Source: Bacteroidales bacterium
GTDB taxonomy: Bacteria > Bacteroidota > Bacteroidia > Bacteroidales > UBA932
Length of the DNA: 64,000 nucleotides
Assembly: GCA_017439305.1 (NCBI GenBank)
Contig: JAFSJK010000063.1
Location: forward strand, 14,367-78,366
Direction: 5' to 3'
Shown: positions 1,389 to 24,038 of the stretch, piece after piece
Layout of the letters: each line of letters starts with the position of its first letter
Numbering within the stretch: the stretch's first letter is position 1
Translations under genes and position numbers: made by a program
The notes under the pieces: generated by a model
What the model was told of the DNA's origin: nothing
Database searches by the model: none
The model's input: the letters and a program-made list of their open reading frames with translations, nothing else

Positions 1389-2666
1389 CTATTGGATATC
1401 AGCCTGATATTGTATCTCTTGGCCGGAAACGAGGTGGTCGCAGGCAATGGCCGGCCGGGAGGACTTGGACGCCTTGCAGGGGATCGTGACCCAGGCTTCC
1501 TCGCCCGGCATCAGGGTACGGAGGTCCAGGTCTCCCCGAACGCCCTCCACCTCCACGAAAGCGGAGCGGTAGATGGGAGCGACGCCCACATTGGCGATGA
1601 GGACGGACGCGCCCTCCCCTTCCTTGACCTGGAAATCCCGGATTTCAAACCGGTATCCCATGGACATGGCAGCCTCGGCGATGCGCTCCGGGGTCTGTTT
1701 CCCGGGCTGGTCGTTGCCGATGATGAACGTCATGTGGACCTTCGCCACCACATCTTCGAACACCCGTCCGTACATGCCTTCCTTGTCCAGGACATGCTTC
1801 TGGTCATAGTCGGAGTAGTAGCTGAACTCGCCTCCAGCGGGGGCTTTCTTGTAGCGGTCTTCGCCGAAGAACTTCCAGCCGGACCAGTTGTAACCGCTCC
1901 AGTCCTGGCACATGAAGGAGTCGTCGAAGTTGCCGAAGTTCAGGTCCAGCAGCTCTTTTTTCTTATGGAAAGGAGCATATTTCGCGTCGGAAGCATCGAT
2001 GGAGAAGAGCCACGGCGTATCCTGGAACCACTCGTCCATCTTGGGCAGGAACTGCGCCTGGAAGTCGTGCGAAGGGAAGGTCTGGCCGATAATGCAGGGG
2101 CCGTCATAGATGTGGTACTCCGCCCACAGGCCGAAACCCGTTTCCACGAAAGCCAGGCGGGGATCCTTGTCATACCGCTCGGCGAAACGGCGGTGGAACT
2201 CCATGTGGAAGCGCTGTAGTTCCTCGCAGCGCCAGTCGGGGAATTCCGTCTTGCGGCCTTCGCTCTTGGCGTTGGTGGCCTCATAACCCGGCCAGGACTT
2301 GATATAGTCCGGGACGGCGCAGGAGTAACCCGGATAGGTATAGCGGAAACGCACCACGACCTGATGGCCGCGGGCGGCCGCAGCCTCCAGCAGCTTGTCC
2401 ATGGGCGTCCAGTCGAACACGTCCTTTTCCTTGCACACGTCGTTGTACAGCATATAGGAGAACTCCAACTGCACATATTCTTTCTTCACGGAGCCGCTGG
2501 TGTTCCAAAGGACGATACCCGTCATCGGCTGCACGTGCGTGATGGACGACTGGAGAGGAATACGGGTGCCGTATTCTGCCGGCTTCTGGCCGGATTCGGG
2601 CTCCGTCTTGTTCTCGCAGGAACAGGAAACGAGGGCCAGGGACATAAGGAGGAACAGCTTCTTCAT
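1389..2666 (-). CDS. DUF4832-domain lipoprotein, putative glycoside hydrolase (TIM barrel)
   Basis: Lipobox LVSC; QPMTGIVLW N-terminus; FVETGFGLWAEYH; GGEFSYY; C-terminal MGYRFEI...NVGVAPIY typical of DUF4832. Confidence 0.7.
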   Translation of the reverse strand: MKKLFLLMSLALVSCSCENKTEPESGQKPAEYGTRIPLQSSITHVQPMTGIVLWNTSGSVKKEYVQLEFSYMLYNDVCKEKDVFDWTPMDKLLEAAAARGHQVVVRFRYTYPGYSCAVPDYIKSWPGYEATNAKSEGRKTEFPDWRCEELQRFHMEFHRRFAERYDKDPRLAFVETGFGLWAEYHIYDGPCIIGQTFPSHDFQAQFLPKMDEWFQDTPWLFSIDASDAKYAPFHKKKELLDLNFGNFDDSFMCQDWSGYNWSGWKFFGEDRYKKAPAGGEFSYYSDYDQKHVLDKEGMYGRVFEDVVAKVHMTFIIGNDQPGKQTPERIAEAAMSMGYRFEIRDFQVKEGEGASVLIANVGVAPIYRSAFVEVEGVRGDLDLRTLMPGEEAWVTIPCKASKSSRPAIACDHLVSGQEIQYQADIQ

Positions 2667-2667: not shown

Positions 2668-3537
2668 TTACTCTCTGCTGAAAATCAGGACGCAGCTGAT
2701 GGCGGCCACAATACCGATGATCTGCGGCACGGTAGGGACGGCCGCGTAAAGGAGGAGGGAAATCACGCACATGATCACCGGGGCGCAGGCATCGGCCAGC
2801 GGAGCGATGACCATCGCCTTTCCATAGCGGTTGGCATATACCAGCGTGAAGGCGCCGATGGCGTTGAGGATCTGCACGAAGAACACTTTGACGGCCTCAC
2901 CCCAGCCGTCGGCTAGGACGTTGTTCTGTCCCTTGCCCATCAGCAAAGCCACGGGGATGAGCAGCACGGCCGAAATCGCCATGTACACGAACACGCTCTC
3001 CGCATCCGGGGTGTTGTTGTTCGCAAGCTTCATCACGAAAGCCTGGACGCCCCAGCAGATGAATACGATGGAGGCGAACAGGATCCAGATCCGGCTGGTA
3101 GCCGCACCGTCCTTGCTGTCGGGCAGGGCGAAGCAGACGAGGGCCACGAACGCCAGCGCGATGCCCAGGATGCCCAGCTTGGAAACTTTCTCCTTGAGGA
3201 CGGTGGCGGACAACAGCACCGTCACGATAGGCGCCACCGAGATCATCGGCATCACCAGATACGCCGGCGCATAGTCGAGAGCCAGGAACAATACGAGCTG
3301 CCCGCCGGCACCGAGCAGGCCCACAGCCAGGCTCAGCAGGGCCGGTTTCGTCCGGACGTCCAGCTTGAACTTGATGTTGACAAGGGCAGCCAGGGCGCAG
3401 GGAATCATGCTCAGGGCCCAAATCACGTAAACCATGGTCTTGGGGAGCGTGGTCTGGTCGCTGAATGCGCCCCAGATGCCCCAGGTAACCATCGTGATGA
3501 TGGCATATAACAGCCAGTTGTGCTTTTTCTGTGTCAT
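2668..3537 (-). CDS. DMT/EamA family transporter
   Basis: 289 aa, ~10 hydrophobic segments in two repeats, WGIWG motif. Confidence 0.85.
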   Translation of the reverse strand: MTQKKHNWLLYAIITMVTWGIWGAFSDQTTLPKTMVYVIWALSMIPCALAALVNIKFKLDVRTKPALLSLAVGLLGAGGQLVLFLALDYAPAYLVMPMISVAPIVTVLLSATVLKEKVSKLGILGIALAFVALVCFALPDSKDGAATSRIWILFASIVFICWGVQAFVMKLANNNTPDAESVFVYMAISAVLLIPVALLMGKGQNNVLADGWGEAVKVFFVQILNAIGAFTLVYANRYGKAMVIAPLADACAPVIMCVISLLLYAAVPTVPQIIGIVAAISCVLIFSRE

Positions 3538-3552: not shown

Positions 3553-4689
3553 TTATTTCACGAAGGAGGCGACAAGGCGTCCCCATTCGTCGTTTTCGCG
3601 GATGCCGGTGAAAGCGGCGGAGCCGGGGCCCCACGCATAGAAGGGAACGGCGATGCCGTTATGGCTTTCGCTGGCGAAGAACACGCCGATCTCCCCTTTC
3701 TCCAGGTTCCCGTCCTGCAGGGTAAGGCAGCCGGTGGCATGGTCGGCGGTCATCACCACCAGGGTGTGCCCGTCGGCGGCCGCCCACTGGAGGACATCAC
3801 CCAGGGTACGGTCGAAGTCCAGGAGTTCCTCCATGGCCTTCGCGATGTCGTTCCCGTGCAGCCAGTCGTCAATGCAGGAGCCTTCCAGCATCATCACGAA
3901 GCCTTTTTCTCCGCTTTCACGGGACAGGATGTCCAGACCGCGGGCCACGGTGTGGCGGTACAGGTCGCCTCGCTCCATCACCACGGGCAGGTTATCCGGG
4001 GCCAGGATGCCGATGACCGGCAGTTCCGCCTGCATCAGTTCCTCTTCCGTACGGGCCACGGTATAGCCTGCCGCAGCCATTTCCTTCGTAATGTCACGCC
4101 CGTCGGTCCGCTTCACGGTGAACCAGTCCAGACCGCCGCCGGAGAGATAGTCCACGCCGCATTCCACATAATCTGCGATGAGGTCCTCCTGGTTATAGCG
4201 GTACTCGTTGTGGCAGCAGAAATCGCAAGGGGTCGCATCGGCGAAGTGGCAGGTGACGGCCACGCCGGTTTTCTTGCCCAGTTCCCGGGCCTTTACCAGG
4301 ATGGAAGGGATGTCCGTGCTGTCCGGCGCCGTACCCACATGGCTGTAGGCCGTCTTCTTGCCGGAAGAGAGGGCCGTTCCGCCCGCTCCGGAGTCCGTGA
4401 TGAGTTCATTGGTGCACCAGGTGCGGGACAGACCCACGTGGGTCATGTTGTCCAGATTCAGCTTGCCGTGGTTCAGCACCCAAGCGCAACTGACCTGTTC
4501 CAGGCCCATGCCGTCGCCGATCATGAAGATGATGTTGCGCACCTCGTTGTCCTGCGGCGGTTCCGCGACGGAAACGATGTCGTAGGTGTGCGGGGTGGCA
4601 TAATACTGCAGGGCGGCCTCTTTCTCCTTCTGCTTGCAGGAGACGGCCAGCAGGCCTGCGAACAAGGCAAGGACGGTAATCTTTCTCAT
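3553..4689 (-). CDS. Alkaline phosphatase (lipoprotein)
   Basis: Start reset to MRKITVLALFAGLLAVSC; NIIFMIGDGMG, TDSGAGGTA (Ser nucleophile), EGSCIDDWLH, TADH. Confidence 0.9.
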   Translation of the reverse strand: MRKITVLALFAGLLAVSCKQKEKEAALQYYATPHTYDIVSVAEPPQDNEVRNIIFMIGDGMGLEQVSCAWVLNHGKLNLDNMTHVGLSRTWCTNELITDSGAGGTALSSGKKTAYSHVGTAPDSTDIPSILVKARELGKKTGVAVTCHFADATPCDFCCHNEYRYNQEDLIADYVECGVDYLSGGGLDWFTVKRTDGRDITKEMAAAGYTVARTEEELMQAELPVIGILAPDNLPVVMERGDLYRHTVARGLDILSRESGEKGFVMMLEGSCIDDWLHGNDIAKAMEELLDFDRTLGDVLQWAAADGHTLVVMTADHATGCLTLQDGNLEKGEIGVFFASESHNGIAVPFYAWGPGSAAFTGIRENDEWGRLVASFVK

Positions 4690-4690: not shown

Positions 4691-6334
4691 TCAGTCCTTC
4701 GGAATGATGGCGTCATCCAGGCCGGTGAAATCGTAACGGTACAGATAGGAAGTGGAGCCGTAGTCGTCAGCCACCCAGATGCAGCTGTTGGCATGGTCGA
4801 CGCAGATGGATTCCGGATTCTCGATTCCCCGGGCGGAATAGAAGCCCAGCATGGTTTCGGCGTCGCCGGTGAGGGCGAAGAAGCGGCGGGATTCGGAATC
4901 GATGACCCAAAGCCAGTCGGTGAGCGGGTCATAGCACAGGTCGGCGATCTCGGTGATGGTGGGATACATCTCCCGCAGGCCCTTCCGCCACAGGACTTCG
5001 CCGGTTTCCAGGTTGCAGAGGTAGAGGTAGGACCCCGTCTGCGTCCCGGCATAGGCCAGCCCGTCCTTGTAGTAAGTGAGGCCTTCCAGGCCAGCGTTGC
5101 CGAAGCCCTTGGCATCGTCGATCTTGAGGACGGATTCCACCCCCTTGAACGAACTCGACGCGAAGATGTTTTCCATGCTCGCCGCCGGGATGCTGCACAC
5201 ACTGCTGGGTTCACCGCCGATCAGCAGGTCTCCGTTGTCATATCGCAGGGAGATGGCTTCCGCGTCGATGCCGCTGCCGCTGGTGGTCTTCAGGGACGCC
5301 TTGTTCAGCACTTCTCCTTCGAAAGAAAGCTGCGCGATTTCGCCGCTGTCGCCCACGCCCCAGAGGAAGGAGGCATCCGCGCTCAGCGAGAGGCCGGAAA
5401 GTTCATTGAGACTGACCGTGTACTTGGTGCGCTGCCCCATTTCCGGCATGCTGGGTTTGGGACCGGTGTAGGCTTCCAGCTTGGAGGTAATGTCGCCCAG
5501 TTCCAGCACCTTGCCGGCTTTCAGCATGCCGTTCTGGAGGCCGTCCTCCGTGTTCCGGGTATAGGCAGCAGGCCAGGCGCCGTCCTTGCCGAAATACAGC
5601 GTGAATCCGCCTTTCAGGGTGACGCCGCCGGGAAACCAGACCGTCGTGGTCTTTCCGTCACCCGCAAGCGTCATCTCCAGGAAAGGATAGCCGTCGGAAA
5701 CCACCTTGGAGAAACTGGTTTCCGCTGAAGAATGGGCGTTCGAGTACCCCTGGAAACGCAGACCGGGGCGCTGGGCGCCTGCGATGATTACCTTGTCATA
5801 GCCGCCGGAAACAGTGAAAGTGATGGCGGCCGAAGCGTCGTGGAAGGCAAAGTTGGCCCCCTCCAGATAGGCCTGGGCCAACAGGATGTCCGCTTTCGTG
5901 AACGTGGTCGTGGCGTCCATCAGGCCGTCTTCAGCCTGAACGGCAGAGGCGGGCCAGGCTGCATAGAGATTGTCCGGAGTGGCCAGATATTCAAACAGGC
6001 CGCTTTCGAGCTTGAGGGTAGCAGTCTTGCCGTCGGACGAGATGTCCGAGGCCTTCAGGGCATACGTCTTGGCTGCCGGTCCGTAGGAACCGTGCACCAG
6101 GATCTCGTCACCCGCTTCCCATTTCCCTTTCAGGGGCGAAACCGTGAAGGTATAGTCCCCGGCCTTGGGCTTTCCGTCGTCAACAGGCTGGTCTTTGTCC
6201 TTGTCTTTGTCCTTGTCCGGGTCCTGGGTTTCCTTGCCGGGATTCGGATCATCTTTCTGCCCGCAGGAGACGCAACACGGCAGGAAAGCCAGCGACACTG
6301 CGAGGGTGAGAATGGGGAGTAAGCTCTTTTTCAT
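4691..6334 (-). CDS. Lipoprotein: fimbrillin-like N-domain plus SdiA-regulated/phytase-like beta-propeller
   Basis: Lipobox VSC then QKDD; KWEAGDEILV and NLYAAWPA (fimbrillin-like); C-terminal NELSGL, DAEAI, GLEGL, PESI repeats of YjiK/SdiA-type propellers. Confidence 0.6.
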   Translation of the reverse strand: MKKSLLPILTLAVSLAFLPCCVSCGQKDDPNPGKETQDPDKDKDKDKDQPVDDGKPKAGDYTFTVSPLKGKWEAGDEILVHGSYGPAAKTYALKASDISSDGKTATLKLESGLFEYLATPDNLYAAWPASAVQAEDGLMDATTTFTKADILLAQAYLEGANFAFHDASAAITFTVSGGYDKVIIAGAQRPGLRFQGYSNAHSSAETSFSKVVSDGYPFLEMTLAGDGKTTTVWFPGGVTLKGGFTLYFGKDGAWPAAYTRNTEDGLQNGMLKAGKVLELGDITSKLEAYTGPKPSMPEMGQRTKYTVSLNELSGLSLSADASFLWGVGDSGEIAQLSFEGEVLNKASLKTTSGSGIDAEAISLRYDNGDLLIGGEPSSVCSIPAASMENIFASSSFKGVESVLKIDDAKGFGNAGLEGLTYYKDGLAYAGTQTGSYLYLCNLETGEVLWRKGLREMYPTITEIADLCYDPLTDWLWVIDSESRRFFALTGDAETMLGFYSARGIENPESICVDHANSCIWVADDYGSTSYLYRYDFTGLDDAIIPKD

Positions 6335-6340
6335 ATCAGG

Positions 6341-7039
6341 TTATAAGGCCAATGCGTAGCCGCTTTCGACCGTACCGTCGGCGGCCACCACAAAGTAAAC
6401 GGGTGTCATGTGAATGTCGAAAACGGCGGTACCGTTTTCCGGGAACAGGTATTCCCAGCCGGGGACGGCGGGTTCAGGCCCGTAGCCCAGGCCAATGGCC
6501 ATTTTTTTAACACCGCTCCACTGCGGGTCCGCGGAGAGTTTCTCCAGGGCTTCGCGGCAGGAGGGGCAGCCCAGGTCCAGTACCAGCACCAGCGTACGGG
6601 TGTCGAATCCGGCCCATCCGGGGACGATGGCCTTCGTCCCTTCCAGATTGTACCCGATCCATTCCCGCCGCTGCAGGAAAGGATCGCATTCACCCGGACC
6701 CAGGACGCCGTCGGCCGCCATCCGCTCCACGGCCTTGCCGTACAAGGCGGCATTGCGGCAGGGAGAGAGGAGGTTGTAGAAGGCGCCGTCCATCCATTCC
6801 GAGTAAACGTAATAGGCCACGGTGTCCTGCTTCAACTGGTCGAAGAGCACATCCAGGGCCGCAAGGGCATCCTCTTCCGGGGCCGCGACGGCCAGTTCGG
6901 CAAAATCGGCGAACTGGTCCTCGGCCGCGTGGAAGTCCGAATAATCAATGCTGTGGGTATTCCAGAAGTTACCGACGCCGGATGCCTGGCACCCCGCAAG
7001 GAGCGCCAGGCACAGGACAGCGGTAAAGGTTCTTTTCAT
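6341..7039 (-). CDS. DUF5106-like lipoprotein with C-terminal thioredoxin-like CxxC domain
   Basis: LAGC lipobox; NFWN, FYNLLSPCRN; LDLGCPSC. Confidence 0.6.
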   Translation of the reverse strand: MKRTFTAVLCLALLAGCQASGVGNFWNTHSIDYSDFHAAEDQFADFAELAVAAPEEDALAALDVLFDQLKQDTVAYYVYSEWMDGAFYNLLSPCRNAALYGKAVERMAADGVLGPGECDPFLQRREWIGYNLEGTKAIVPGWAGFDTRTLVLVLDLGCPSCREALEKLSADPQWSGVKKMAIGLGYGPEPAVPGWEYLFPENGTAVFDIHMTPVYFVVAADGTVESGYALAL

Positions 7040-7044
7040 CAGGA

Positions 7045-7767
7045 TTACTTGACGGTCGTAATTTTCAGGAGGTGGCCCCAGCCTCTTTCGTCCACCTCGA
7101 TGCTGCTGTTGGGCATGTTGGAGAGTTCTCCCCAGTCGTATCCGTAGAAACGGATGCCGGTGTAGAAGACGTCCCCGATCTTATGCCCGGCGGGAACGGC
7201 GTTGTTGAAGAGCTCGCGGGCCAGGAGGATCTCATACTCGCCGCCGTTGCCCTTGCCGGTAACCAGGTTGTTGTTCGGAGGGAGGAGTTCATCCCACTTG
7301 CCTTCGCTGTTGCGCTGATGCAGCGTTCCGTCATAGGTCGTCCAGGCACCGCCGTCGGCCAGGGCGCCTTCGATGATGAAATCATACGGATCCAGGAAGT
7401 AGTTCTCGTAACCGGTCGTGAAATCGTTGTTGGTATCAAGGCATAGCCGGATGGGCATTTCGTCCTGGATGTCCATCAGGTCGTTCACCGCTTCCTTGTT
7501 GAACTTCATGTAGTAGTAGACGAAGTCCTTGTCCGAGCAGCAGCGGATTTCGGACACGGCGTCCCAAGGGGAGTTGGGATCGTTCTTCGCGCTGACGACG
7601 ACGTCGGACTTCAGGGCGGCCCAGTCGTCGAAGTTGCCGTCGATCTTGATGCCGAGGCCCTTGGTTTCTTCCTTCTTCTGCTCTTCCTCTTCTTCCTCAT
7701 TGTTCTTGTTGCAGGAAACGGCAAGGAGGGAAGCGGCCATGGCCAGGAGTGTCAAAAACTTTTTCAT
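7045..7767 (-). CDS. Surface lipoprotein, IDGxFxDW family (putative glycan-binding)
   Basis: Start reset to MKKFLTLLAMAASLLAVSC; acidic linker; GIKIDGNFDDW; paralog of 10657-11385. Confidence 0.75.
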   Translation of the reverse strand: MKKFLTLLAMAASLLAVSCNKNNEEEEEEQKKEETKGLGIKIDGNFDDWAALKSDVVVSAKNDPNSPWDAVSEIRCCSDKDFVYYYMKFNKEAVNDLMDIQDEMPIRLCLDTNNDFTTGYENYFLDPYDFIIEGALADGGAWTTYDGTLHQRNSEGKWDELLPPNNNLVTGKGNGGEYEILLARELFNNAVPAGHKIGDVFYTGIRFYGYDWGELSNMPNSSIEVDERGWGHLLKITTVK

Positions 7768-7789
7768 GGTATTGATTGATAATGGTTTG

Positions 7790-9166
7790 TTATAATTCAA
7801 ACAATTTGTTCCAACCGGTTTCGGCATCCCAGACGCCGTCGTTGGCCAGGGCGATGCTGTATTCGGGGCGGCCCGGCAGCAGCGGGTCCTCCAGGGCCAG
7901 GTACACCGTGCCGTGCTCGGCCGGGAGGTCGAACTGGACGTCCATCTCATGGGCACCAGGCTGCCACTCCCGGGGGTCTTCGCACGGGACGGAGGTGCTG
8001 GTCCCGTTTTTCTCCACGAAAACCAGCAGGGCCGTGCGGGGATTCATCGGAGCGGCGAAACCCTTGTTGGCAAACTTGATCTTGACGGTCATCTTCTTCC
8101 CAACCTCCCGCTTGGCGGGATAGGTGACCTCGTCGAGTACCAGGCGGTAACCCAGCCGGTTCTCGATTTCCTCCATGCAGCCGGAATTATTCCAGCGGTT
8201 CAGGACGGAACTGTTGTAGCCGCTGTTCAGGTAAGTCCAGTGATAATCTTCCATGTCCTTGATGGAAGCGTCACAGGTGCAATAGTTGGACACTTTGCAG
8301 GTCTCCCCGCCCATCAGGGTGTAGCGGGAATCGCGCTTCCAGAAAGTCCGGTCGCCTTTCTCGTTGTCAAAGGTGCCGTAATCGTCGGCCGACGCGCCGA
8401 AACAGTCGTTGTGGCCGCCCAGGCGGGACAGGTCCGACAAGTCATGGGCCGTCTCCGCCGTCAGGGTGTCCTTCATGGAGAGGCCGTACATCCGCATCTT
8501 GAACTGCGGGGTGCGCAGCGCGACCTGGCGGCTGTCCGGCAGGGCTCTCAGCAAGGCGTCCGTCAGGTGCCGGCGGGGATTGTAGTCGGCGTCCGTCTTC
8601 GGGTCCATGATGAAGTTTTCGGTGTAATACCACTCGCCCCAAACGCCTACGAAGCCGGCCTGCAGGACGAAGATTACATCCGCATTTTTCTGAAGGAGCG
8701 GCCGTAACTGGGCCACGTGCCGAAGGACGACCTGCTCTTCAGGGTCCCAGGGCTTGGCACTCTCGCTGTTCTGGTAGGCAAAGCGCAGGACGCATTTGAC
8801 ACCGGCCTCCCGGAGGGCGTCAAACGAAGTCTGGATCATGTCCAGGTAAGCCTGCGAGATGTCCCCTTTCATGAATTCGGTGAGGTAGAAGCCCACGTAC
8901 ATGAGCGTCTTCCCGTCGGCACGCAGCGCCTTGGCGGCCGAAACCCGGACGGGATTCGACGCGCTCTTGATGTCGATGGCGCCACCGTAGAAGCCCCTTT
9001 CCGGATTGACCAGGGGCACAGTGCTTTCCGTATAATGGACGGTCGCCACGTCTCCGTCCACGGTGATCTCACCGTAGTCGGTTTCGACGGGGCCCTTTTC
9101 CTGGCAAGCGAAGCACAGGAAGACAGGGAGGGAAAGCAACTGGATGAAGATGGGGAGTCTCATCAC
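7790..9166 (-). CDS. DUF4874/DUF4832 lipoprotein, putative glycoside hydrolase
   Basis: NPERGFY, QAGFVGVWGEWYY, GGHNDCF, MGGETC, LGYRL...GFAAPMNPR. Confidence 0.8.
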   Translation of the reverse strand: MMRLPIFIQLLSLPVFLCFACQEKGPVETDYGEITVDGDVATVHYTESTVPLVNPERGFYGGAIDIKSASNPVRVSAAKALRADGKTLMYVGFYLTEFMKGDISQAYLDMIQTSFDALREAGVKCVLRFAYQNSESAKPWDPEEQVVLRHVAQLRPLLQKNADVIFVLQAGFVGVWGEWYYTENFIMDPKTDADYNPRRHLTDALLRALPDSRQVALRTPQFKMRMYGLSMKDTLTAETAHDLSDLSRLGGHNDCFGASADDYGTFDNEKGDRTFWKRDSRYTLMGGETCKVSNYCTCDASIKDMEDYHWTYLNSGYNSSVLNRWNNSGCMEEIENRLGYRLVLDEVTYPAKREVGKKMTVKIKFANKGFAAPMNPRTALLVFVEKNGTSTSVPCEDPREWQPGAHEMDVQFDLPAEHGTVYLALEDPLLPGRPEYSIALANDGVWDAETGWNKLFEL

Positions 9167-9175
9167 GACAATGCC

Positions 9176-10579
9176 TTACAGGGTGAAAGTATAGAGCTTG
9201 TTGAAACCGGTGCTCTCGTTCCAGACGTCCTCATTGGCCAGCTGGATGGAGAACAGCGGATTGTCGCGGAGCGTCTCGCAAGGATCCGGCAGGTTCAGCG
9301 ACAGGGTCACTTCGCCGGAAACGCCGTCCGGAAGGGTTACGGTCTGGTCGATGGCGGTTTTCTCGCCCGGCATCCAGTAGCGCGGGTCGGAGTTCAGGCT
9401 CCAGGTCTTCAGCACCTTGCCGCCCTTGTCGGTGAGCACCAGCTCGGCGTCACGCGGATTCTGGACTGCGGCAAAGCCGTCATTGCGGAGGTCAAGCACC
9501 ACGCGGAAGGATTCTCCGGCCTTAGCACCCTTGGTGTATTGGCCCTTTTCCAGGACGAAGCGGTAGCCCAGTCGCTTCTGGATTTCCTCGAAGCAGCCAC
9601 CGGAACGCCAGCGGCCGATGACGCCGGAGTGATAGCTCTGGTTCAGGTAAGTGAAATGGTTGACGGCCATGTCGGCCAGCGCGCCGATGACGGTGGCGTT
9701 GGTGTTGCCTTCCGGCGGCACGCAGAGGCAGTAGTTCGAAAGGCCGCAGGTCTCGCCGCCCATGATGGTGTAGCGGCTTTCGGAACTCCAGTAGGCGCGG
9801 TCGTTCTTTCCGCGGTAGGTGCCCTGGTCATTGCCGCTGGCCAGGTAGCAGTCGTTGTGACCGCCCAGACGGCCCTTGGGATTCGCCTGATGGGCGGTGG
9901 CACGGGTCAGGGTATCGGAGTAGGAATACCCGTAAAGGTCCATTTTGAACTGCGGGGTACGGAGTTCGATCTGCCGGTCGGCAGGGACCGCGTCCAGCAG
10001 GGCGTCCACGATGGCCTTCCGGTTCGGGTCCTTGCTGTCCCCGTAGTTTTCGGTGTAGTACCATTCGCCCCAGCTGCCGATGAAACCGGCCTGGACAACG
10101 AAGATGATGTCGCCGTATTCCTGGATGATGGGTTTGAGCTGGGCGATATGGCGGAGCGCTTGCTCCGGGGTGGCGTCCCAAGGCTTATCCTTTTCGTCGA
10201 AGCCGTTGGAATAGCAGAAGCGGAGGATGCATTTGGCTCCGCCGTCGCGCATGGACGCAAAGTATTTCCGGACGGTTTCCAGATAATCGGCAGGAATGTC
10301 CGAACTGACGAAATCCGTGAGGTGGAACTCCAGGAGGTACAGCGTACGGGCCTGCTTGCGGTTGATGGAGACGTTGTCCTTGGAAATAGGCTTTGCGGAG
10401 GCGTTATGGATTTCCTGGGGCGTGTAAAAACCGCGTTCGGGATTGGGGATGACTTCATCGGAAGCCTTGTATGCAACGGCTTCCATGCCGGCGATCTGGT
10501 CGTCCGGTCCTTTGCCGCAAGCGACGGCCAGCAGCAGGAGCGCCCCGCAGGCGAAAGTGTTTCTAATCATGGGTTTCAC
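9176..10579 (-). CDS. DUF4874/DUF4832 lipoprotein, tandem paralog
   Basis: NPERGFY, QAGFIGSWGEWYY, GGHNDCY, MGGETC, LGYRF...GFAAVQNPR; start may be 10570. Confidence 0.8.
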   Translation of the reverse strand: MKPMIRNTFACGALLLLAVACGKGPDDQIAGMEAVAYKASDEVIPNPERGFYTPQEIHNASAKPISKDNVSINRKQARTLYLLEFHLTDFVSSDIPADYLETVRKYFASMRDGGAKCILRFCYSNGFDEKDKPWDATPEQALRHIAQLKPIIQEYGDIIFVVQAGFIGSWGEWYYTENYGDSKDPNRKAIVDALLDAVPADRQIELRTPQFKMDLYGYSYSDTLTRATAHQANPKGRLGGHNDCYLASGNDQGTYRGKNDRAYWSSESRYTIMGGETCGLSNYCLCVPPEGNTNATVIGALADMAVNHFTYLNQSYHSGVIGRWRSGGCFEEIQKRLGYRFVLEKGQYTKGAKAGESFRVVLDLRNDGFAAVQNPRDAELVLTDKGGKVLKTWSLNSDPRYWMPGEKTAIDQTVTLPDGVSGEVTLSLNLPDPCETLRDNPLFSIQLANEDVWNESTGFNKLYTFTL

Positions 10580-10590
10580 GGATTATGGTT

Positions 10591-10636: not shown

Positions 10637-10656
10637 GCTAGGTTAAAGGGATTCGG

Positions 10657-11385
10657 TTACTTCTTCACAGTCTTGACCTGGAGGGAAGGAGCGAGACCGC
10701 CGGGGTTATCGTCGGTGACGTGGGAATTCGGAAGGACGCCCACGGACTCCCAGTCCTGCTGGATGTCGAAGCCGATGGAGAAGTTGTCAGCGAGCTTCTT
10801 CGGCATGAGCTCACGGGCGATCTGGAACTCGTATTTGCCCTCGATGCCAGCGCCGGCGCAGAGACCGTTGAACTCGCCGAGGTCAGTCCAGGCCCAGCCA
10901 GTGCCGTTCGGCTCACCGGTCCACTCGTGCACGCCGGGCTCGTAGGAGCCGACCTTGGCGCCGTCAGGATAGACGAAGCCTTCGAACAGGAGCTCGGAGC
11001 AGGCATCGGAGAACTCGTCACCATAACCGCCGGTGGAAGCATCACCGTCCGTGTTGATGTAGCAGTGGAAAGGAACGTGCTCCACATCGGGCTCGTGGGT
11101 GATCTGGTCCTTGTCCCACTCGAAGTAGACAAACACGTACACCGCGTCGGCATACACCTTCACGACTTTGAGGGCCGTCTTCGTGGCCTCAGGGTCGCAC
11201 TTGGCCTCAGCGACGGAAGTGAGCTTGGCCCAGTCGGAGAAATCGCCGTCCACCTTGATGGGAGCGACATACTCCTCTTCCTTCTTGCCATCATCGTCGT
11301 CCTCGTCGTCATTGGGCTTGTTGCAGGAGACGGAGATCGCGAGGATCGAAGCCGTCATCGCCAGAAAAGAAAGGATCTTTTTCAT
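10657..11385 (-). CDS. Surface lipoprotein, IDGxFxDW family (putative glycan-binding)
   Basis: VSCNKPNDDEDDDD; PIKVDGDFSDW; immediately downstream of susD. Confidence 0.75.
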   Translation of the reverse strand: MKKILSFLAMTASILAISVSCNKPNDDEDDDDGKKEEEYVAPIKVDGDFSDWAKLTSVAEAKCDPEATKTALKVVKVYADAVYVFVYFEWDKDQITHEPDVEHVPFHCYINTDGDASTGGYGDEFSDACSELLFEGFVYPDGAKVGSYEPGVHEWTGEPNGTGWAWTDLGEFNGLCAGAGIEGKYEFQIARELMPKKLADNFSIGFDIQQDWESVGVLPNSHVTDDNPGGLAPSLQVKTVKK

Positions 11386-11436: not shown

Positions 11437-13212
11437 TTAATGTCTGTTCTGCTCGATGCCGCTGGAGTTGATTTCGTCCAGGGGGAGGAGCAGCGCGATG
11501 CGCGGATCGTTCGGCTGGATGATCTCCCAGTCGTGGCAGCCCACGAAGCGACGGTCCAGAGGCAGCTTGTTGCGGAAGGAGTCGAAGGCGCTGTGGCCCT
11601 CGTAGCAGAGCTCGCGACGACGCTCGTCCAGTACGCAGGAGAGGGCGGAATCATAGCCGCGCTCCTTGATGTTGGAGGAGGTCATCAGGGCATCGCCGGT
11701 GAGGCCGGCACGCTTGCGGATGGTGTTCACGTCGTCCAGGGCCTGGCTGTCCTTGCCGGTCTTGGCATAGGCTTCAGCGCGGTTCAGGACCACTTCGCCC
11801 CAACGGAGGAACACCGGCGAAGTCATCATCGGCAGACCGTCCTGATAGCTGAACTTGGAGCAGTAGTAGATCGCATAGCTACCGCCCATGTTGAAGCGGA
11901 CGCCCTTGCCGCGGGTGAAGTTCGGACGGACATAGACGCGGGCCTTGCCGTCGGTCTTGATGCCCGGGAAGCCGGCATCCTCGACATAGTACTCGGTGTA
12001 GGTGTTCACAATGGTGGGTTTGGCCGTGTAAGGCTTGCCCTGGTAGATGAAGGTCACGGAACCGTCGGCCTTCTGGGTGCAGTCAAAGGCGAAGTCGTCG
12101 GAGCAGGAGTTGCTCTTGTCGTCGGACTTGATGGGGAAAACCACCGTCACCTTGTCGGTCGTGGCATAGCCCTGGCCCTTGTACTCCGGCATGCTGAAGT
12201 AAGCGGCGAAACGCTTGTCCTCAGGATAGCGGCGGAAATTATCGATGAGGTTCTCGTTCCAATAGTGCTCACCCCAGCCGTTGCCGTCCTTGATGTACAT
12301 GGAGGCGATGGAAGCCTCGGCGTGCTCGCCGGCCCAGTCGTCGTTCTGGTCCAGGCGGATGCACCAGATGGTCTCCGGACTGTCATAGGTGTGCGTGGGA
12401 TAGTCGGCGAAGTCGTAGCCTGACGTGACGGCGGACGGTGCGTGGGCAAGCAGTTCGTTGCACTGCTCGATGCACTTCTCATTCTCGCCCATGTACAGAT
12501 ACACGCGGGAAAGGAGGGCGGTGGCGGCGTCCAGGCTCACATAAGCCTTGTCGTTGCCCTTGATGCGCTCGCTCTCGCCGTTCGCGAGATACTTCTTGGC
12601 CTCGAGGAGGTCGTTGACGACGGCGTCGTACACCTCACCCACGGTGGCACGCTTGGTGGTGGAGATGTCCAGGTCCTGGCGCAGCACCACGCCCGGGTTG
12701 TCACGGCCCTGCGCATACGGCATCGCGAAGAGGTTCACGAGCTGGAAGTGCAGGAGGGCACGGAAGAAGTAGTTCTCACCGAGCAGATGGTCGCTCAGGG
12801 GCGATGCGCCCGGGACGATGGCGTCGATGTTGGAATTCGCAGCGTTGATGATCTTGTAGCCGATCCACCAGGTGTAGTAGATGTTCTTGTGGGTGGGATC
12901 CTCGCTGTACATGTAGGCCTCGGTGAACGGGTCCTCGGACTTACCGGAAACCGTCACGTTGTTTCCCCGGAGCTCAGCGAGCTGGAAGTAATGGCGGATG
13001 TAGTAGTTTCCGCTCTCACCGCCGCTCTGGCCCTTGTAGGCGATACGATCCTTGAACAGGGTGTAAATGCCATCGGTGGTGTAGACCGCCGAGGAAGGGT
13101 TCTCGGCCAGCTGGGCGGAGGTCATGGAATCCGAAGAATAGAAGTCCATGTTGCAAGACGCCAGGGCGAGGGCCGCAAGTACGATTGTTACGATGGTAAT
13201 TATCTTTTTCAT
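11437..13212 (-). CDS. susD: RagB/SusD family lipoprotein
   Basis: Lipobox LASC; GENYFFRALLHFQLVNLF; RWGEVVLNRAEA; DERRRELCYEGH. Confidence 0.95.
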   Translation of the reverse strand: MKKIITIVTIVLAALALASCNMDFYSSDSMTSAQLAENPSSAVYTTDGIYTLFKDRIAYKGQSGGESGNYYIRHYFQLAELRGNNVTVSGKSEDPFTEAYMYSEDPTHKNIYYTWWIGYKIINAANSNIDAIVPGASPLSDHLLGENYFFRALLHFQLVNLFAMPYAQGRDNPGVVLRQDLDISTTKRATVGEVYDAVVNDLLEAKKYLANGESERIKGNDKAYVSLDAATALLSRVYLYMGENEKCIEQCNELLAHAPSAVTSGYDFADYPTHTYDSPETIWCIRLDQNDDWAGEHAEASIASMYIKDGNGWGEHYWNENLIDNFRRYPEDKRFAAYFSMPEYKGQGYATTDKVTVVFPIKSDDKSNSCSDDFAFDCTQKADGSVTFIYQGKPYTAKPTIVNTYTEYYVEDAGFPGIKTDGKARVYVRPNFTRGKGVRFNMGGSYAIYYCSKFSYQDGLPMMTSPVFLRWGEVVLNRAEAYAKTGKDSQALDDVNTIRKRAGLTGDALMTSSNIKERGYDSALSCVLDERRRELCYEGHSAFDSFRNKLPLDRRFVGCHDWEIIQPNDPRIALLLPLDEINSSGIEQNRH

Positions 13213-13229: not shown

Positions 13230-16200
13230 TTATTTAACGATGCAGACTGCTACGCGGTTGCTTTCCGGAGTTGCGGAAGCGTCGCGGTCGCCGCCCTTGG
13301 AGGAGCAAGAGATCCTGTCAGCGGAGATACCGGCATTCCGAAGCATTTCGGCCACGGTTTCAGCACGTTTCTGGGACAGTTCCCTGTTGATTTCGGAAGT
13401 ACCGGTAGCCGTGTCGGCATAGCCGGTGATTTCGATCTTGGCATCAGGATTGTCCTTGAGGATCTGAGCGATCCGGCCCAGCTTGAAGGCCTCGTCAGGA
13501 CGGATCTCAGCCTTGCCGATGACGAAGAAGAGGTCATCGTTGTAGGTACCATCGAGCGTGGAGGCAGGGACCTTCTTCTCGACGATCTTCTCCACAATCT
13601 TTTCCACGGGAACCTGCTTCTCGACAATCTTTTCGACCACTTTCTCAACCACGGCAGGAGCGACGTTGGAGAAGCTCGCAGGCTGGGCGGCCGGGGCCTT
13701 CTTGGCTCCGCCGAAGGTGATCTCGAGGCCAAGGACTACAGACAGAGGAACAGGATAGTTGCTGGAGTACAGACCGGCGTGGTGATAGGTGTCGCCATCC
13801 AGGCGGACTTCCGGGTCCATGCCGGAGAAACGGGACAGGGTGAAGATATTGTCAGCAGCCGCGTAGACGCGGGCATTGGCGATATTCGCCTTCTGGATGA
13901 GCGTCTTCGGCAGGTTGTAAGCCAGAGTCACGTTACGGAGACGGAAGAAACTGCCGTCCTCCAGGTAACGGGAGGAAGTACCGTTGGAACCATCAGCACG
14001 GGCGGCCACCAGCGCAGGGTGGGTGGCGACGTCGCCTTCCTTCTTCCAGCGCTTCCAGCCGAGGCCGTTCTTGATGGACATCTGGTTGAGGCCGGTGTAG
14101 GCACCGTCGGAGTCCATCTGCTCACGGTTCTTATTGTAGATCTGGTTGCCGAAGACGAAGTTGCCGTTGGCGCTGAGGGTGAAGTTCCAGAAGCGGAGGC
14201 TGGTGTTGATACCGCCGCTGAACATCGGGGAGGCCTTGCCCACCAGTTGCTGGGTGGCTTCGGCGAGCTTGTTGGTCACGGCGGACTTCATCTTGGCCTG
14301 CGTGTTTCCGTTCTCGTCGATGTAGAAGATCGGATTGCCGGACTCGTCCAGGTCGGGAACGAAGGTCTCCCACATCGGAAGACCGTTCTCGCGGTCGACA
14401 CCCAGCCACTTGGGCATGTACCAGGAGTAGACGTCCTCACCCTCGCGGATGACCTGGTTGACGTCACCGCGGTTCATCACGATGTCGGCGTGGCCCGGAA
14501 GCTCGATCACGCGGTTCTGGTTGAGACCCAGGTTGAGACCGATGTTCCAGCCGAAGTTCTTCCGGTTGAAGATGGCGCCGTCCGTGGCGAATTCAACACC
14601 CATGTTACGTACGGTGCCCACGTTGTCCATGACGGCGAAGAAACCGGTGGACGGGGACATCGGGGATTCCAGGAGGATCTTGGTGTTGATGGTGTGATAG
14701 AGGTCGATCGTGAAGTTCCAGTTCTTCAGGAGGGTGGCATCCAGACCGAGGCTGGTCATGTAAGCCTCTTCCCAACCGAGGTTCGGGTTGGCCATGCGCT
14801 CCAGGATGGCGGTCTTGGTGCCGTTGTACTGGCCGCTGAGGGAGAAGGTGTCCTGATAGGAGAAGGCCGGGATGTTGTCGTTACCGGTCTTACCGTAACC
14901 CGCGCGCAGCTTGAGGAAGGTCAGCGGGCTGTTCTTCATGAAATTCTCATTGGAGATAATCCAGGCTGCGGAAGCGCCCGGGAAATAACCGCCGCGATTG
15001 TTGGGACCGAACTTGTAGCTCTCGTCATAGCGGATGGAAGCGGTGAGGATGTACTTGCCCAGGTAGGAATACTGTGCCTGAGCGAGCCAGGCCCAGGAGC
15101 GGGAGTGGTAGTCACGGCCGCTCACGCTGCTCATCACGGTGTTGGAGAGGGAACGCTGGCCGATCGGGAACTGGATACCGGCAGCACCCATGTCGCGGGA
15201 ATAGCCTTCGCCATACTCCCAGCCCACGGTGGCGTTCAAGTCGTGGTCGCCGAAGGTCTTGTGGAACTTCGCGAGGTCGGTCGTGCCCCAGCCGGTCCAT
15301 TCGCCGTCACTGTTCTCGAGGCTGCCGCCGGTACCCATACCGTCATAGGTGCGGGGGTCGACGTAGTACTCGTAGAAGGAGTGGGAAGTGTCGTAGCGGT
15401 TCATGGAGGTGAGGGTGAGCCAGTCGGTCACGACCCAGACGAACTGGAGGTCGCCGGTAAGGCTCTCGCCATGTCCCTTGGAATAGTTGTAACTTTCACT
15501 GTGCAGCACGTTGGAGGGGTTCTGGGTCCACCAAGTACCGCCGCCGTAACCGTCGGAACGGGACTTGCCGTCCATGAAGATGTATTCTCCGGTAGAGTGC
15601 CACTTGCCGTTCTCGTCCTGTTCCATCACATAAGGGACGTCCCAAGGCATGGCATAGTAGGAATATTCCAGGGTACGCCAGGAAGAAGTGCCCTGGTCAT
15701 AGGATTTCGCGTAATTGAGACGCACCGACATGGTCAGACGGTCCGCGAGCGGAACCGACAGGTTCATGCGGGCGGAAGTCTTCTTGAAGTTGGTGTTGAT
15801 GAGGGTACCCTTCTCATTGTAGTGGTCGGCACTCACGAAGTAGTTGACCTTGCCAGCCTTGCCGGAAGCGGAAGCGTAGTAGTCCTGCACCATGCCCAAC
15901 TTGAAGTTGTTGTTCACCCAGTCGAAGTCCTGCTCCAGCAGGCTCTCGGGATAGGTGAGGTCGAACAGGGTCGAGGAGAACATGCCCTTCGCGTAGTTGT
16001 AGAGTTCCTTGGAGTTCATCGGGCGGAAGGTACCCATCAGGGCCTTCTTGATACCGCCGTTGGCCTTGAATTCCACGGTGGTATTGTCGGCCGAGCCGCT
16101 CTTGGTGGTAACCACGATGACACCGCCGGAAGCGGCCGCACCGTAAAGGGCGGTGGCGGAAGCGTCCTTCAGGACGGTGATGGTCTCGATGTCGTTGGGG

Positions 16201-16775
16201 TTGAAGGAACCGCCGGCGACGCCGTCCACCACATAGAGAGGACCCGCGCCTGCGGTGATGGAACCGGTACCGCGGATGCGGATGTCGGCATTGTCACCAG
16301 GCTGGCCGGAGCCGTTCATGACCACGACGCCGGCCACCTTGCCTTGCAGCATGTTACCCACGTCGTTGGAGCTCACGTCACGGAGCTTCTCACCGCTCAT
16401 CGAGACGACGGCACTGGAGAGTTCCGCTTTCTTCTGGGTAGTGTAACCCAGGACCACGACTTCGTCGAGGGCCTCGGTGTCGGGGTTGAGGGCTACGTTG
16501 ATGACAGCACGGCCGTTGATAGCTTCCGTCACGCTGACATAACCCAGGGACGAGAACGTAATCGTGGCGTTCGCAGGCGCCGTAATCACGAACTTACCGT
16601 CGAAATCGGTGATGGTTCCGTTTCCGCCGGAGAGCATGACTCCCGCCCCGATGAGGGGCTGGCCATCCGAGGCGTCCGTAACCTGGCCCGTGACGGTGAC
16701 GTTTTGGGCCGTTGCAGGGATGGCAAGCGCGATGGCGGCCATTACCGCAAGCAGGTAGGAATAGATTTTTCTCAT
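13230..16775 (-). CDS. susC: SusC/RagA TonB-dependent transporter fused to a C-terminal OmpA-like domain
   Basis: IRIRGTGS, PLYVVDG, VLKDASATALYGAAASGGVIVVTTK, FFRLRNVTLAY; barrel ends LGLEITF at aa 1021 (nt 13713); then 160 aa with VEKIVEK linker and ITGYAD..G...N..LS..RA..V. Confidence 0.92.
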   Translation of the reverse strand: MRKIYSYLLAVMAAIALAIPATAQNVTVTGQVTDASDGQPLIGAGVMLSGGNGTITDFDGKFVITAPANATITFSSLGYVSVTEAINGRAVINVALNPDTEALDEVVVLGYTTQKKAELSSAVVSMSGEKLRDVSSNDVGNMLQGKVAGVVVMNGSGQPGDNADIRIRGTGSITAGAGPLYVVDGVAGGSFNPNDIETITVLKDASATALYGAAASGGVIVVTTKSGSADNTTVEFKANGGIKKALMGTFRPMNSKELYNYAKGMFSSTLFDLTYPESLLEQDFDWVNNNFKLGMVQDYYASASGKAGKVNYFVSADHYNEKGTLINTNFKKTSARMNLSVPLADRLTMSVRLNYAKSYDQGTSSWRTLEYSYYAMPWDVPYVMEQDENGKWHSTGEYIFMDGKSRSDGYGGGTWWTQNPSNVLHSESYNYSKGHGESLTGDLQFVWVVTDWLTLTSMNRYDTSHSFYEYYVDPRTYDGMGTGGSLENSDGEWTGWGTTDLAKFHKTFGDHDLNATVGWEYGEGYSRDMGAAGIQFPIGQRSLSNTVMSSVSGRDYHSRSWAWLAQAQYSYLGKYILTASIRYDESYKFGPNNRGGYFPGASAAWIISNENFMKNSPLTFLKLRAGYGKTGNDNIPAFSYQDTFSLSGQYNGTKTAILERMANPNLGWEEAYMTSLGLDATLLKNWNFTIDLYHTINTKILLESPMSPSTGFFAVMDNVGTVRNMGVEFATDGAIFNRKNFGWNIGLNLGLNQNRVIELPGHADIVMNRGDVNQVIREGEDVYSWYMPKWLGVDRENGLPMWETFVPDLDESGNPIFYIDENGNTQAKMKSAVTNKLAEATQQLVGKASPMFSGGINTSLRFWNFTLSANGNFVFGNQIYNKNREQMDSDGAYTGLNQMSIKNGLGWKRWKKEGDVATHPALVAARADGSNGTSSRYLEDGSFFRLRNVTLAYNLPKTLIQKANIANARVYAAADNIFTLSRFSGMDPEVRLDGDTYHHAGLYSSNYPVPLSVVLGLEITFGGAKKAPAAQPASFSNVAPAVVEKVVEKIVEKQVPVEKIVEKIVEKKVPASTLDGTYNDDLFFVIGKAEIRPDEAFKLGRIAQILKDNPDAKIEITGYADTATGTSEINRELSQKRAETVAEMLRNAGISADRISCSSKGGDRDASATPESNRVAVCIVK

Positions 16776-16838: not shown

Positions 16839-18065
16839 CTATAATAAATCATTCAGGCCGATCAGGTTAAAGGCCCGGAAGTACTTGTCCATGTCGCGTT
16901 CGATCCGGCCCAGGACCACCTCTTCCGCGTCGATGCCGACCCGCTTCAGGTTGTCGAACAGGAAGCCGCGGGCGGCCAGGGGTTTCGGCTGCTGCCAGAT
17001 GTAACGGCAGCAGGTGGCGACGATCCAGTCCTGACGCTCCGGGGTAAGTTCGTGGAGATCCTTCCCCTGCTCGTCTTCGTGGAGCCATTTTTCCCAGCGA
17101 TGGGAAGCGTGGACGGCCTCCAGGAGGGTTTCCTTCATCCGGGACGGGACGGCGATACGGCCTTCCGCATCCAGTTTCTTCTCCACTTCCTCCAGTTCGC
17201 AGAGGGCGCGGTACTCACTCATCGTGAATTCGGGACCCACGTTGGCGGCGCCCATGCCGCAGAGAGGATACTCCTCGGGGTTAGCTACATCATCGGTATA
17301 GTGACCCTTGATGTAGCTACCCAGAGGACGTACCTTGGATGTCAGCCGCTTCGCCACTTCACCGTCAAACACCGTCGTGTCCAGGTCGGTGCCCACTTTC
17401 CCGACGATGAAGCAGGGCCATACATCCCCCAAACCAACGTTTACCAACCCTATTTTCAAATCATGGATGAAAGTGTCGAAAGTTGTTTCGTCCGCCAGGC
17501 CGCCGTGGACCTCTTCCGTACCCACCTCGTAGGAGATGGGGGGAAGGCCCTTTTCCTTGCGGAAACGCTCCACATGGTCGATGAGCTCGACGGTGCGGGC
17601 GGCCACCAGATGGATGTCGATGATCTCCCCCTTGGGGACGTTGATGTCCACCGTGGGATCCACGTGGATCAGGTCGTATCCGGCGAGGACGGCCGCCTCG
17701 AAGGACTTCTTCACGCCGTCCATCGCATCTTTCACGGACCATTTCTCCGTACGCTGCCGGTCCTTGAGCCAGGGACCGCCGTGGTCGATGGCGATGATCA
17801 CGGGGCCGGTGAAATGGACGCGTTCGGTCTCGAAACGCACCAGCCGCGTGAACTGCTCCTGGGTCATCCCGGTATAACCGCCGTCGCAGTCTACCTGGTT
17901 GAGGGTGGCCGCGAAGTAGATGGGCGCATTGTTGCGCTTGGCGGCGCGCAGGGAGGCGCGGATGACGGACGGGGAGTTGGGGCAGGCCGCGAAGATTGTG
18001 CGGCGGATGCCCGTCTCACGCTCCAGCTGGTCGATGCGGTGAAGGAGATTCTCAGTTTTTGCCAT
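16839..18065 (-). CDS. kbaZ: KbaZ/GatZ/AgaZ family protein (likely tagatose-6-phosphate 4-epimerase)
   Basis: Start reset to MAKTENLL; ATLNQVDCDGGYTG, DHGGPW, IHVDPT, EVGTEE, KGHYTD, ANVGPEF. Confidence 0.88.
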   Translation of the reverse strand: MAKTENLLHRIDQLERETGIRRTIFAACPNSPSVIRASLRAAKRNNAPIYFAATLNQVDCDGGYTGMTQEQFTRLVRFETERVHFTGPVIIAIDHGGPWLKDRQRTEKWSVKDAMDGVKKSFEAAVLAGYDLIHVDPTVDINVPKGEIIDIHLVAARTVELIDHVERFRKEKGLPPISYEVGTEEVHGGLADETTFDTFIHDLKIGLVNVGLGDVWPCFIVGKVGTDLDTTVFDGEVAKRLTSKVRPLGSYIKGHYTDDVANPEEYPLCGMGAANVGPEFTMSEYRALCELEEVEKKLDAEGRIAVPSRMKETLLEAVHASHRWEKWLHEDEQGKDLHELTPERQDWIVATCCRYIWQQPKPLAARGFLFDNLKRVGIDAEEVVLGRIERDMDKYFRAFNLIGLNDLL

Positions 18066-19194: not shown

Positions 19195-19208
19195 AGTATC
19201 TAGCTTTG

Positions 19209-19216
19209 CAAATGTA
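19209..19216 (-). promoter_or_regulatory. -7 promoter box (TACATTTG) for the agaS-kbaZ-susCD arm
   Basis: TAnnTTTG match just upstream of agaS. Confidence 0.55.
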
Positions 19217-19234
19217 TAAAACATCCGGCAAAAT

Positions 19235-20149: not shown

Positions 20150-20171
20150 TGAAATAGCATTAGTGTTGGGG

Positions 20172-20262
20172 CAAAGATAAGGAATATTTTTATACGAAAC
20201 AAAACGAAATACTTTTTTTACCCATAAATCGAAACCAAGTGAAATATTTTCGGTTTTTTTCG
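20172..20262. promoter_or_regulatory. Divergent agaR/pfkB promoter region with phased CGAAA/TTTCG repeats
   Basis: -7 box TATCTTTG (minus, 20172-20179); CGAAAC/CGAAAT 20195/20205; CGAAAC/TGAAAT 20230/20240; TTTCG 20248/20258. Confidence 0.6.
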
Positions 20263-20289
20263 CATCTTTGCAACATAAAACCACATAGC

Positions 20290-22468: not shown

Positions 22469-22489
22469 TCAACAAAACACTGCATAGCC

Positions 22490-24028: not shown

Positions 24029-24038
24029 ATACGCAGAT

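Follow-up and report, generated by a model that had tools for sequence, protein, structure and literature searches.

Tandem DUF4874/DUF4832 lipoproteins of a Bacteroidales polysaccharide utilization locus as candidate hydrolases of a galactosamine-rich polymer

A 64,000-nucleotide stretch of the genome of a Bacteroidales bacterium (assembly GCA_017439305.1, contig JAFSJK010000063.1, positions 14,367 to 78,366 of the forward strand; hereafter the window) carries two adjacent genes for lipoproteins, P0001 and P0002, each of which combines a DUF4874 and a DUF4832 domain. We propose that P0001 and P0002 are long-diverged paralogous hydrolases. They would be the depolymerases of a polysaccharide utilization locus (PUL) for a polymer that is rich in N-acetylgalactosamine or galactosamine (GalNAc/GalN) and comes from other microbes. 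We consider this proposal somewhat probable. Alpha-1,4-linked material of the Pel or galactosaminogalactan type would be the most likely polymer. The proposal builds on domain content, fold, residue conservation, conserved gene order and, for the front of the operon, contigs from RNA libraries; from these we infer hydrolysis, the substrate, the roles of individual residues and the surface location of the two proteins. The two genes are:

7790..9163, minus strand: P0001 (paralogue A), DUF4874+DUF4832 lipoprotein of 458 amino acids (aa), likely ATG at 9163
9176..10570, minus strand: P0002 (paralogue B), DUF4874+DUF4832 lipoprotein of 467 aa, likely ATG at 10570

The corresponding open reading frames (ORFs) span 7790-9166 and 9176-10579 on the minus strand, and the first residue of the Atlas record for P0002 is residue 4. 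The initial annotation had described the pair as two paralogous DUF4874/DUF4832 lipoproteins that share three motifs, a description borne out by the ORFs, the Pfam matches, the identity of the two proteins and the motifs themselves. P0001 and P0002 are 43% identical over 463 columns (expectation value, E, 4e-125). Both match Pfam DUF4874 (PF16173) and then DUF4832 (PF16116) over the full length of the models and above the gathering cut-offs of 30.1 and 29.2 bits: P0001 with E of 4e-43 (147.2 bits) and 2e-53 (181.9 bits), P0002 with E of 5e-43 (146.9 bits) and 3e-56 (191.2 bits). No NCBIfam model matches either protein. Lipoprotein boxes stand at both N-termini (LAVAC-GKGPDD in P0001, LCFAC-QEKGPVE in P0002).

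The motifs GVWGEWYY/GSWGEWYY, GHNDC and GGETC are found in both proteins, which also retain the family core NPERG, GxWGEW, HNDC, GGE and GYR. In an alignment of 55 diverse sequences (A1), E172, D243 and E276 are invariant (P0002 numbering throughout), as are N46, P47, G50, R111, Y123, R207, R237 and R340. Over 164 aligned family stretches, E172 and D243 are each conserved in 161 and E276 in 158, with two to four gaps in each of these columns. Since the three motifs are near-invariant across the family, they are its core and not a chance likeness. P0001, too, has all near-invariant residues of the family, among them E172, D243, E276, H241, N242 and R207. Eight positions separate the P0001-type from the P0002-type lineage, and none of them lies at the predicted active site.

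An AlphaFold2 model of P0002, made with A1, reaches a predicted local distance difference test score (pLDDT) of 92.8 and a predicted template modeling score (pTM) of 0.90. It consists of a (beta/alpha)8 barrel (about residues 44-336) and a beta-sandwich (strand 33-36 plus residues 341-466). E172 sits in the loop GFIGSWGEW, nine residues past strand 4 (159-163 by DSSP). R207 and D243 (GGHND) are at the ends of strands 5 and 6, and E276 comes immediately after strand 7 (273-275; GGE). The proposal in the initial annotation that a Glu pair is spaced like the acid/base and nucleophile of clan GH-A thus holds in the model as far as the placement at strands 4 and 7 is concerned. A Foldseek search of the Protein Data Bank (PDB) gives 139 matches with E below 0.001, and the top 50 are all TIM barrels of glycoside hydrolases (GH), from families GH26, GH27, GH14 (beta-amylase), GH157, GH5, GH1 and GH3. 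As modeled, the fold of P0001 and P0002 is glycoside-hydrolase-like. The matches are weak (E about 1e-6, TM about 0.3).

The initial reading of the pair as retaining enzymes of clan GH-A is weakened. The (beta/alpha)8 barrel is present and the Glu at the nucleophile position lies at the end of strand 7 (E276, invariant in A1). However, there is no Asn-Glu motif at the end of strand 4, because E172 is preceded by Gly171. Not one of the 55 sequences in A1 matches Pfam Glyco_hydro_42 (PF02449), even with E allowed up to 1. With the catalytic domains of eight Bacteroidales GH42 proteins as counterpart, hhalign aligns A1 at 54% probability and just across strands 1-3. In a forced full-length alignment, which was not used, the Asn-Glu motif of GH42 is out of register and the catalytic residues do not pair. 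Sister clusters in the Atlas have Pfam GH42 matches, or dockerin, GH3, CBM and type IX secretion system (T9SS) tails. This grading of Atlas neighbors into GH42-matching clusters is a lead to clan GH-A, not proof of it. P0002 shares with the clan GH-A barrels (GH42, GH5, GH26, GH157) and with GH14 the barrel and the carboxylates after strand 4 and at strand 7. It differs by the TM-score of about 0.3, the missing Pfam cross-match and a G-x-W-G-E-W loop instead of N-E. This loop may resemble the GxGxxGE loop of GH14. No GH14 sequence was found among 301 Bacteroidota genomes or the control genomes.

Two local features of P0002 lie close to the predicted active site. An 11-residue insertion after strand 7 (287-299), absent in P0001 and with low pLDDT at 293-296, is the largest difference between the paralogues in this region. 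C244 (HNDC), C278 (GGETC) and C329 are co-conserved across the family, the first two in about 135 of 160 stretches, and may reflect a disulfide or some other structural feature next to the active site.

A connection to GalNAc polymers is provided by the pel operons of streptococci and clostridia, which carry a gene for a DUF4832 protein as a conserved accessory (Whitfield et al. 2020, bioRxiv 10.1101/768473; PMC12345266). In the 2025 paper, purified SIR_1591 of Streptococcus intermedius, a DUF4832 protein, disperses aggregates of alpha-1,4-GalNAc-rich Pel, and it does so as efficiently as the PelA hydrolase domain (PMC12345266). The same paper describes SIR_1591 as a protein of 468 aa with a TIM barrel and a beta-sandwich formed by one N-terminal strand and the C-terminal ~110 residues (PMC12345266). 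SIR_1591 and P0002 are therefore alike in DUF4832, in length (468 and 467 aa), in the architecture of barrel plus sandwich and in the link to a GalNAc polymer. They differ in their setting. SIR_1591, as described there, has a transmembrane-helix anchor, is encoded in the operon by which the producer makes Pel and has a presumed role in dispersal, whereas P0001 and P0002 are lipoproteins of a SusC/SusD uptake locus that holds two old paralogues and a divergent third. No streptococcus-like protein is among the 150 best-matching family representatives listed, and no Bacillota DUF4832-only cluster is among the Atlas matches listed.

Within the host genome (92.6% complete) we found no PelG, GH114 or GH135. 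The target polymer is therefore probably foreign to the host, and the role of depolymerase has no rival candidate from the known galactosaminidase families. The Pfam models for GH114, GH135 and GH191 (PF03537 and PF12138) match neither P0001 nor P0002 and have no match in the genome. The established families of this substrate class, GH114 (Ega3), GH135 (Sph3), GH166 (the PelA hydrolase domain) and GH191, use an Asp nucleophile and a Glu acid/base (PMC12054363). They share with P0001 and P0002 the proposed class of substrate and a (beta/alpha)8-type barrel (PMC12054363), but their barrels are smaller and modified, of the PF03537 or Spherulin4 type. We considered GH191 as a home for the DUF4874/DUF4832 family and rejected it, as GH191 is related to PF03537 and GH114-like (PMC12054363).

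The genes around the pair are the other main source of evidence on the substrate. P0001 and P0002 are encoded in a 15-gene minus-strand operon, transcribed from an AgaR-like repressor gene to a lipoprotein gene at the window end. In order of transcription, its other genes include:

19358..20284, minus strand: AgaR-like DeoR repressor (NCBIfam best match AgaR, 237 bits)
18070..19224, minus strand: AgaS-family sugar-phosphate isomerase/deaminase (NCBIfam AgaS family, 341 bits)
16839..18065, minus strand: AgaZ/GatZ/KbaZ-like protein (NCBIfam agaZ_gatZ, 95 bits)
13230..16775, minus strand: SusC-like TonB-dependent transporter with an extra C-terminal OmpA domain
11437..13212, minus strand: SusD-like protein
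10657..11385, minus strand: P0003, acidic CBM9-like lipoprotein of 242 aa in the SusE/F position
7045..7767, minus strand: second lipoprotein of the IDGxFxDW (CBM9-like) family, 36% identical to P0003 (a row of alignment A2)
6341..7039, minus strand: DUF5106 protein
4691..6334, minus strand: SdiA-regulated/phytase-like beta-propeller protein
3553..4689, minus strand: alkaline phosphatase family protein
2668..3537, minus strand: EamA-family inner-membrane transporter
1389..2666, minus strand: P0126, third and divergent DUF4832-like lipoprotein (Pfam DUF4832 E 9e-5, below cut-off)
3-1271, minus strand: larger lipoprotein, cut by the window end, with the IDGxFxDW module

A divergent arm on the plus strand continues the locus on the other side of the repressor gene:

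20239..21243, plus strand: PfkB-family sugar kinase, first gene of the arm
21278..24028, plus strand: two PTP-like (Y_phosphatase3) proteins, the second with BACON and FN3 domains
24021..25439, plus strand: GH109-type protein (Pfam Glyco_hydro_109_C, E 5e-38)
25397..26806, plus strand: AXE1/CE7-like esterase

The AgaR context noted initially is real: AgaR, AgaS and agaZ_gatZ are the best NCBIfam matches of the three genes, all below the equivalog cut-offs. The true start of the AgaR-like gene is probably later than annotated, because the relatives have 263 aa. GH109 is a family of NAD-dependent alpha-N-acetylgalactosaminidases. The position of the enzyme genes just downstream of susCD was likewise given correctly, with the P0003 gene as the only one in between; susC and susD are adjacent and on the same strand as the P0001 and P0002 genes. 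Matches to DUF4832 number three in the whole 2.99-Mb genome, and all three lie inside the window. The third, P0126, has WAEY, FDDS and GGEF in place of WGEW, HNDC and GGET, and matches A1 over 141 columns in hhalign.

The link between the enzyme and tagatose/galactosamine catabolic genes recurs in Cytophagia and in Chloroflexota. Around the enzyme gene of Marinoscillum (L085) lie genes for EamA, DeoR, AgaS, PfkB, a class II aldolase and an amidohydrolase, and in an Anaerolineales metagenome-assembled genome (MAG; L086) it follows genes for a LacD-type aldolase and PfkB. The earlier suggestion that the AgaR context is a clue to a GalN(Ac) substrate thus holds, with AgaR, AgaS, AgaZ-like, PfkB and GH109 genes as flanking genes.

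Under our proposal the polymer would be captured by the acidic CBM9-like lipoprotein(s) together with SusD. P0001 and P0002 would then cut it. Their catalytic pair would be E172, in the loop behind strand 4, and E276, where strand 7 ends, with D243 at the end of strand 6 as a helper. SusC would import the oligomers, which the GH109 protein, the esterase and the phosphatases would trim, and the released GalN(Ac) would enter the AgaS/kinase/AgaZ route under the control of AgaR. The locus shares with other Bacteroidota PULs (the Sus paradigm) SusC, SusD, a probable surface glycan-binding lipoprotein, predicted surface enzymes, a local regulator and catabolic genes. It differs from the paradigm in the regulator, which is an AgaR-type repressor and not a hybrid two-component or extracytoplasmic function (ECF) system.

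The model of P0003 (AlphaFold2, pLDDT 90.2) is a CBM9-like beta-sandwich, and its best solved matches in Foldseek are the CBM9 entries 1i82 and 7nwn (E 1e-4). P0003 is also strongly acidic (isoelectric point 4.25). Given this fold and acidity, P0003 is plausible as a surface glycan-binding protein, possibly for a cationic polymer. Its homologues occur in 48 of 80 related loci and are encoded directly upstream of the enzyme gene in most. An IDGxFxDW module is common to three lipoproteins of the window (10657-11385, 7045-7767 and 3-1271). N-terminal extensions of ~290 aa in longer relatives were considered as fused P0003-like copies and rejected (hhalign probabilities of 6% and 0.7%).

Of the 80 matches closest to P0002 that a scan of genome contigs listed, 77 are from Bacteroidota, one is from a Chloroflexota MAG and one from an unclassified metagenome record. 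In the 80 related loci we counted homologues of the window genes within 8 kb of the enzyme gene. SusD is found in 52 of them, SusC in 48, EamA in 29, DUF5106 in 28, the SdiA-regulated propeller in 24, P0126-type proteins in 16 and alkaline phosphatase in 15. AgaS and GatZ each occur in 17, where the 8-kb flank restricts the counts for AgaS, GatZ, DeoR and PfkB. The closest relatives, L001 and L002, keep the gene order, have only the P0002-type enzyme (88-92% identity for the orthologue in L001) and a SusC without the OmpA tail. The P0002-type copy is the one conserved in all close relatives.

Two to four copies of the enzyme are present in 21 of the 80 loci. In a tree of 112 copies, P0002 and P0001 fall into separate clades, supported at 100 and 96-100 in the Shimodaira-Hasegawa-like approximate likelihood ratio test (SH-aLRT). 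The order of a P0002-type followed by a P0001-type gene recurs in five loci (L013, L016, L017, L031 and L033). Hence, going by these sequence comparisons, the tandem is an old pair of paralogues, lost in some lineages, and not a recent duplication. The tandem arrangement described initially is confirmed, but a local duplication does not explain it. Natural fusions mirror the tandem: P0129 (1147 aa) and P0130 (936 aa) each have two complete DUF4874+DUF4832 modules in one polypeptide.

The stretch is present in bovine and other animal gut metagenomes from at least 10 studies. Metatranscriptome contigs from sheep and cattle, 92-97% alike, run from susC through susD and the P0003 gene into the 5' part of the P0002 gene. 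Here the depth in run X31 is 15-93, compared with 0-3 over the downstream genes and about 0 over P0001. This uneven cover suggests that relatives of the bacterium transcribe the operon front in vivo, to judge from contigs of RNA libraries, in which carry-over of DNA is possible.

Several observations weigh against our proposal. Almost no RNA-library contig covers the P0001 region, although the relatives that dominate the RNA samples may have no P0001-type copy. No PDB chain was matched by sequence or by profile, and the closest solved structures by fold reach a TM-score of only about 0.3. The assay of SIR_1591 reads out the dispersal of aggregates and not the cleavage of a bond (PMC12345266). 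The link from SIR_1591 to P0001 and P0002 is by analogy, through a shared Pfam domain and architecture, and the sequence identity may be low. The known alpha-galactosaminidase families use an Asp/Glu pair and are, by Pfam, unrelated to P0001 and P0002. Furthermore, the DUF4874/DUF4832 family comprises as many as 4244 clusters at 50% identity, with cellulosomal dockerin fusions among its members, so specificity within it surely varies.

In an alternative reading, P0001 and P0002 hydrolyze another galacto-configured glycan (for example a plant or host galactan, or a mucin-type or capsule glycan with GalNAc as a minor component), and the Aga genes handle only a released side product. We regard this as rather unlikely. 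Family members occur as cellulosomal dockerin proteins, the sister clusters match Pfam GH42 (beta-galactosidase type), and the Anaerolineales locus L086 has LacD and PfkB and no AgaS in the part examined. GH109 enzymes are also known to act on terminal alpha-GalNAc of host type. However, AgaS-family and AgaR-like genes share the operon with the enzymes, AgaS and DeoR genes adjoin the enzyme gene in Marinoscillum, and a search of the operon gave no further glycosidase of the kinds usual in galactan or mucin loci. The sole tested member of the family, SIR_1591, acts on a GalNAc polymer.

A different alternative keeps the GalNAc polymer and adds phosphate to it. The substrate would be phosphorylated Pel or a teichoic-acid-like phosphoglycan, the phosphatases of the locus would be obligatory partners, and the barrel would need, or even cleave next to, a phosphate group. 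We think this unlikely. The locus has four phosphatase-type genes (two PTP-like, the alkaline phosphatase and the phytase-like propeller), but among the 80 related loci alkaline phosphatase is found in only the 15 counted above and a PTP-like gene in 5. In L099 and L100 (1-13085) a tandem DUF4874/DUF4832 pair lies beside three proteins of ~940-1130 aa, each with a beta-helix and the purple-acid-phosphatase domains Pur_ac_phosph_N and Metallophos. In Gram-positive pel operons, genes for a CotH kinase and a polyphosphate polymerase accompany the DUF4832 gene. Phosphate-handling genes near the family in several unrelated settings suggest that the natural substrate may carry phosphate. The invariant R207 that closes strand 5, together with further invariant Arg, Lys and His residues, also speaks for this reading, but conserved Arg and His are usual in clan GH-A active sites. 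Phosphate on Pel is not reported in the passages of the 2025 paper on phosphorylation, polyphosphate and CotH, and according to the same source SIR_1591 and the PelA hydrolase disperse the same aggregates (PMC12345266). It is equally doubtful that the family as a whole is specialized on a phosphate-modified GalNAc polymer, with the CotH/polyphosphate-polymerase module phosphorylating Pel and this PUL as the matching consumer. Such a PUL would strip the phosphate and depolymerize the rest, and the two paralogues may split modified and unmodified stretches between them. Finally, one or both of P0001 and P0002 could be glycan-binding lipoproteins that have kept a hydrolase fold without catalysis. 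Inactive paralogues are common in PULs and the P0001 region has almost no RNA-library contig cover, but both proteins possess every near-invariant residue of the family, which makes this reading very improbable.

If P0001 and P0002 are instead, as we propose, hydrolases of an alpha-GalN(Ac) polymer, then a family of more than 4000 clusters (50% identity) gains a physiological role. A type of PUL from ruminant-gut and other Bacteroidota, to which minimal loci of SusC, SusD and enzyme in the oral genera Tannerella and Capnocytophaga are related, would gain a substrate. The biofilms of many bacteria and fungi are held together by polymers of the Pel and galactosaminogalactan types, and new enzymes that degrade biofilms could then be studied. 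The recurrent link to phosphatases could point to the role of the CotH and polyphosphate genes in Gram-positive pel operons. The expectation of new glycoside hydrolases was partly pre-empted by the 2025 paper on SIR_1591. The family nevertheless is barely characterized: it has one partly characterized member and no solved structure, and we found no CAZy family for DUF4874/DUF4832 in the literature searched. Nor did the full-text literature searched contain a description of a PUL for Pel or galactosaminogalactan. What is new here is the consumer-side, PUL-borne version, with multiple paralogues, of a family known from the producer's pel operon.

Some further members of the family stand in other surroundings. 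In Tannerella forsythia ATCC 43037 (L084) a FecR anti-sigma factor (Pfam) and SusC- and SusD-like ORFs (weak tblastn matches) precede the enzyme gene. The same minimal layout can be read from ORF sizes in Capnocytophaga (L062, L079) and Dysgonomonas (L043), and a related Capnocytophaga locus (L082) has a weak SusC/SusD match. Pel-producing streptococci also occupy the oral habitat. In the L098 locus (360-11731), which looks like a producer-side counterpart, the gene for a T9SS-tailed DUF4874/DUF4832 protein is surrounded by a cluster for exopolysaccharide synthesis that encodes four GT4-type transferases, a CE4 deacetylase and two asparagine-synthase-like proteins. The only strong viral fold match to P0002 is a DUF4832 protein of a phage (Ackermannviridae sp.; BFVD A0A8S5R645, E 3e-18, TMq 0.57).

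Within the window, the SusC-like protein extends beyond its barrel by a linker and a full OmpA-type domain (13230-13712, minus strand; Pfam OmpA, E 6e-18). In the 88% identical relative L001, SusC has 1021 aa and lacks this extension, and record 19 of the metatranscriptome contigs X28 joins 13214 to 13741, leaving out the OmpA-type part. Directly past the GalNAc-related arm (26933-32595, minus strand) lie a GH97 gene and two genes of the GH13 alpha-amylase family, of which one encodes a cyclomaltodextrinase-like protein.

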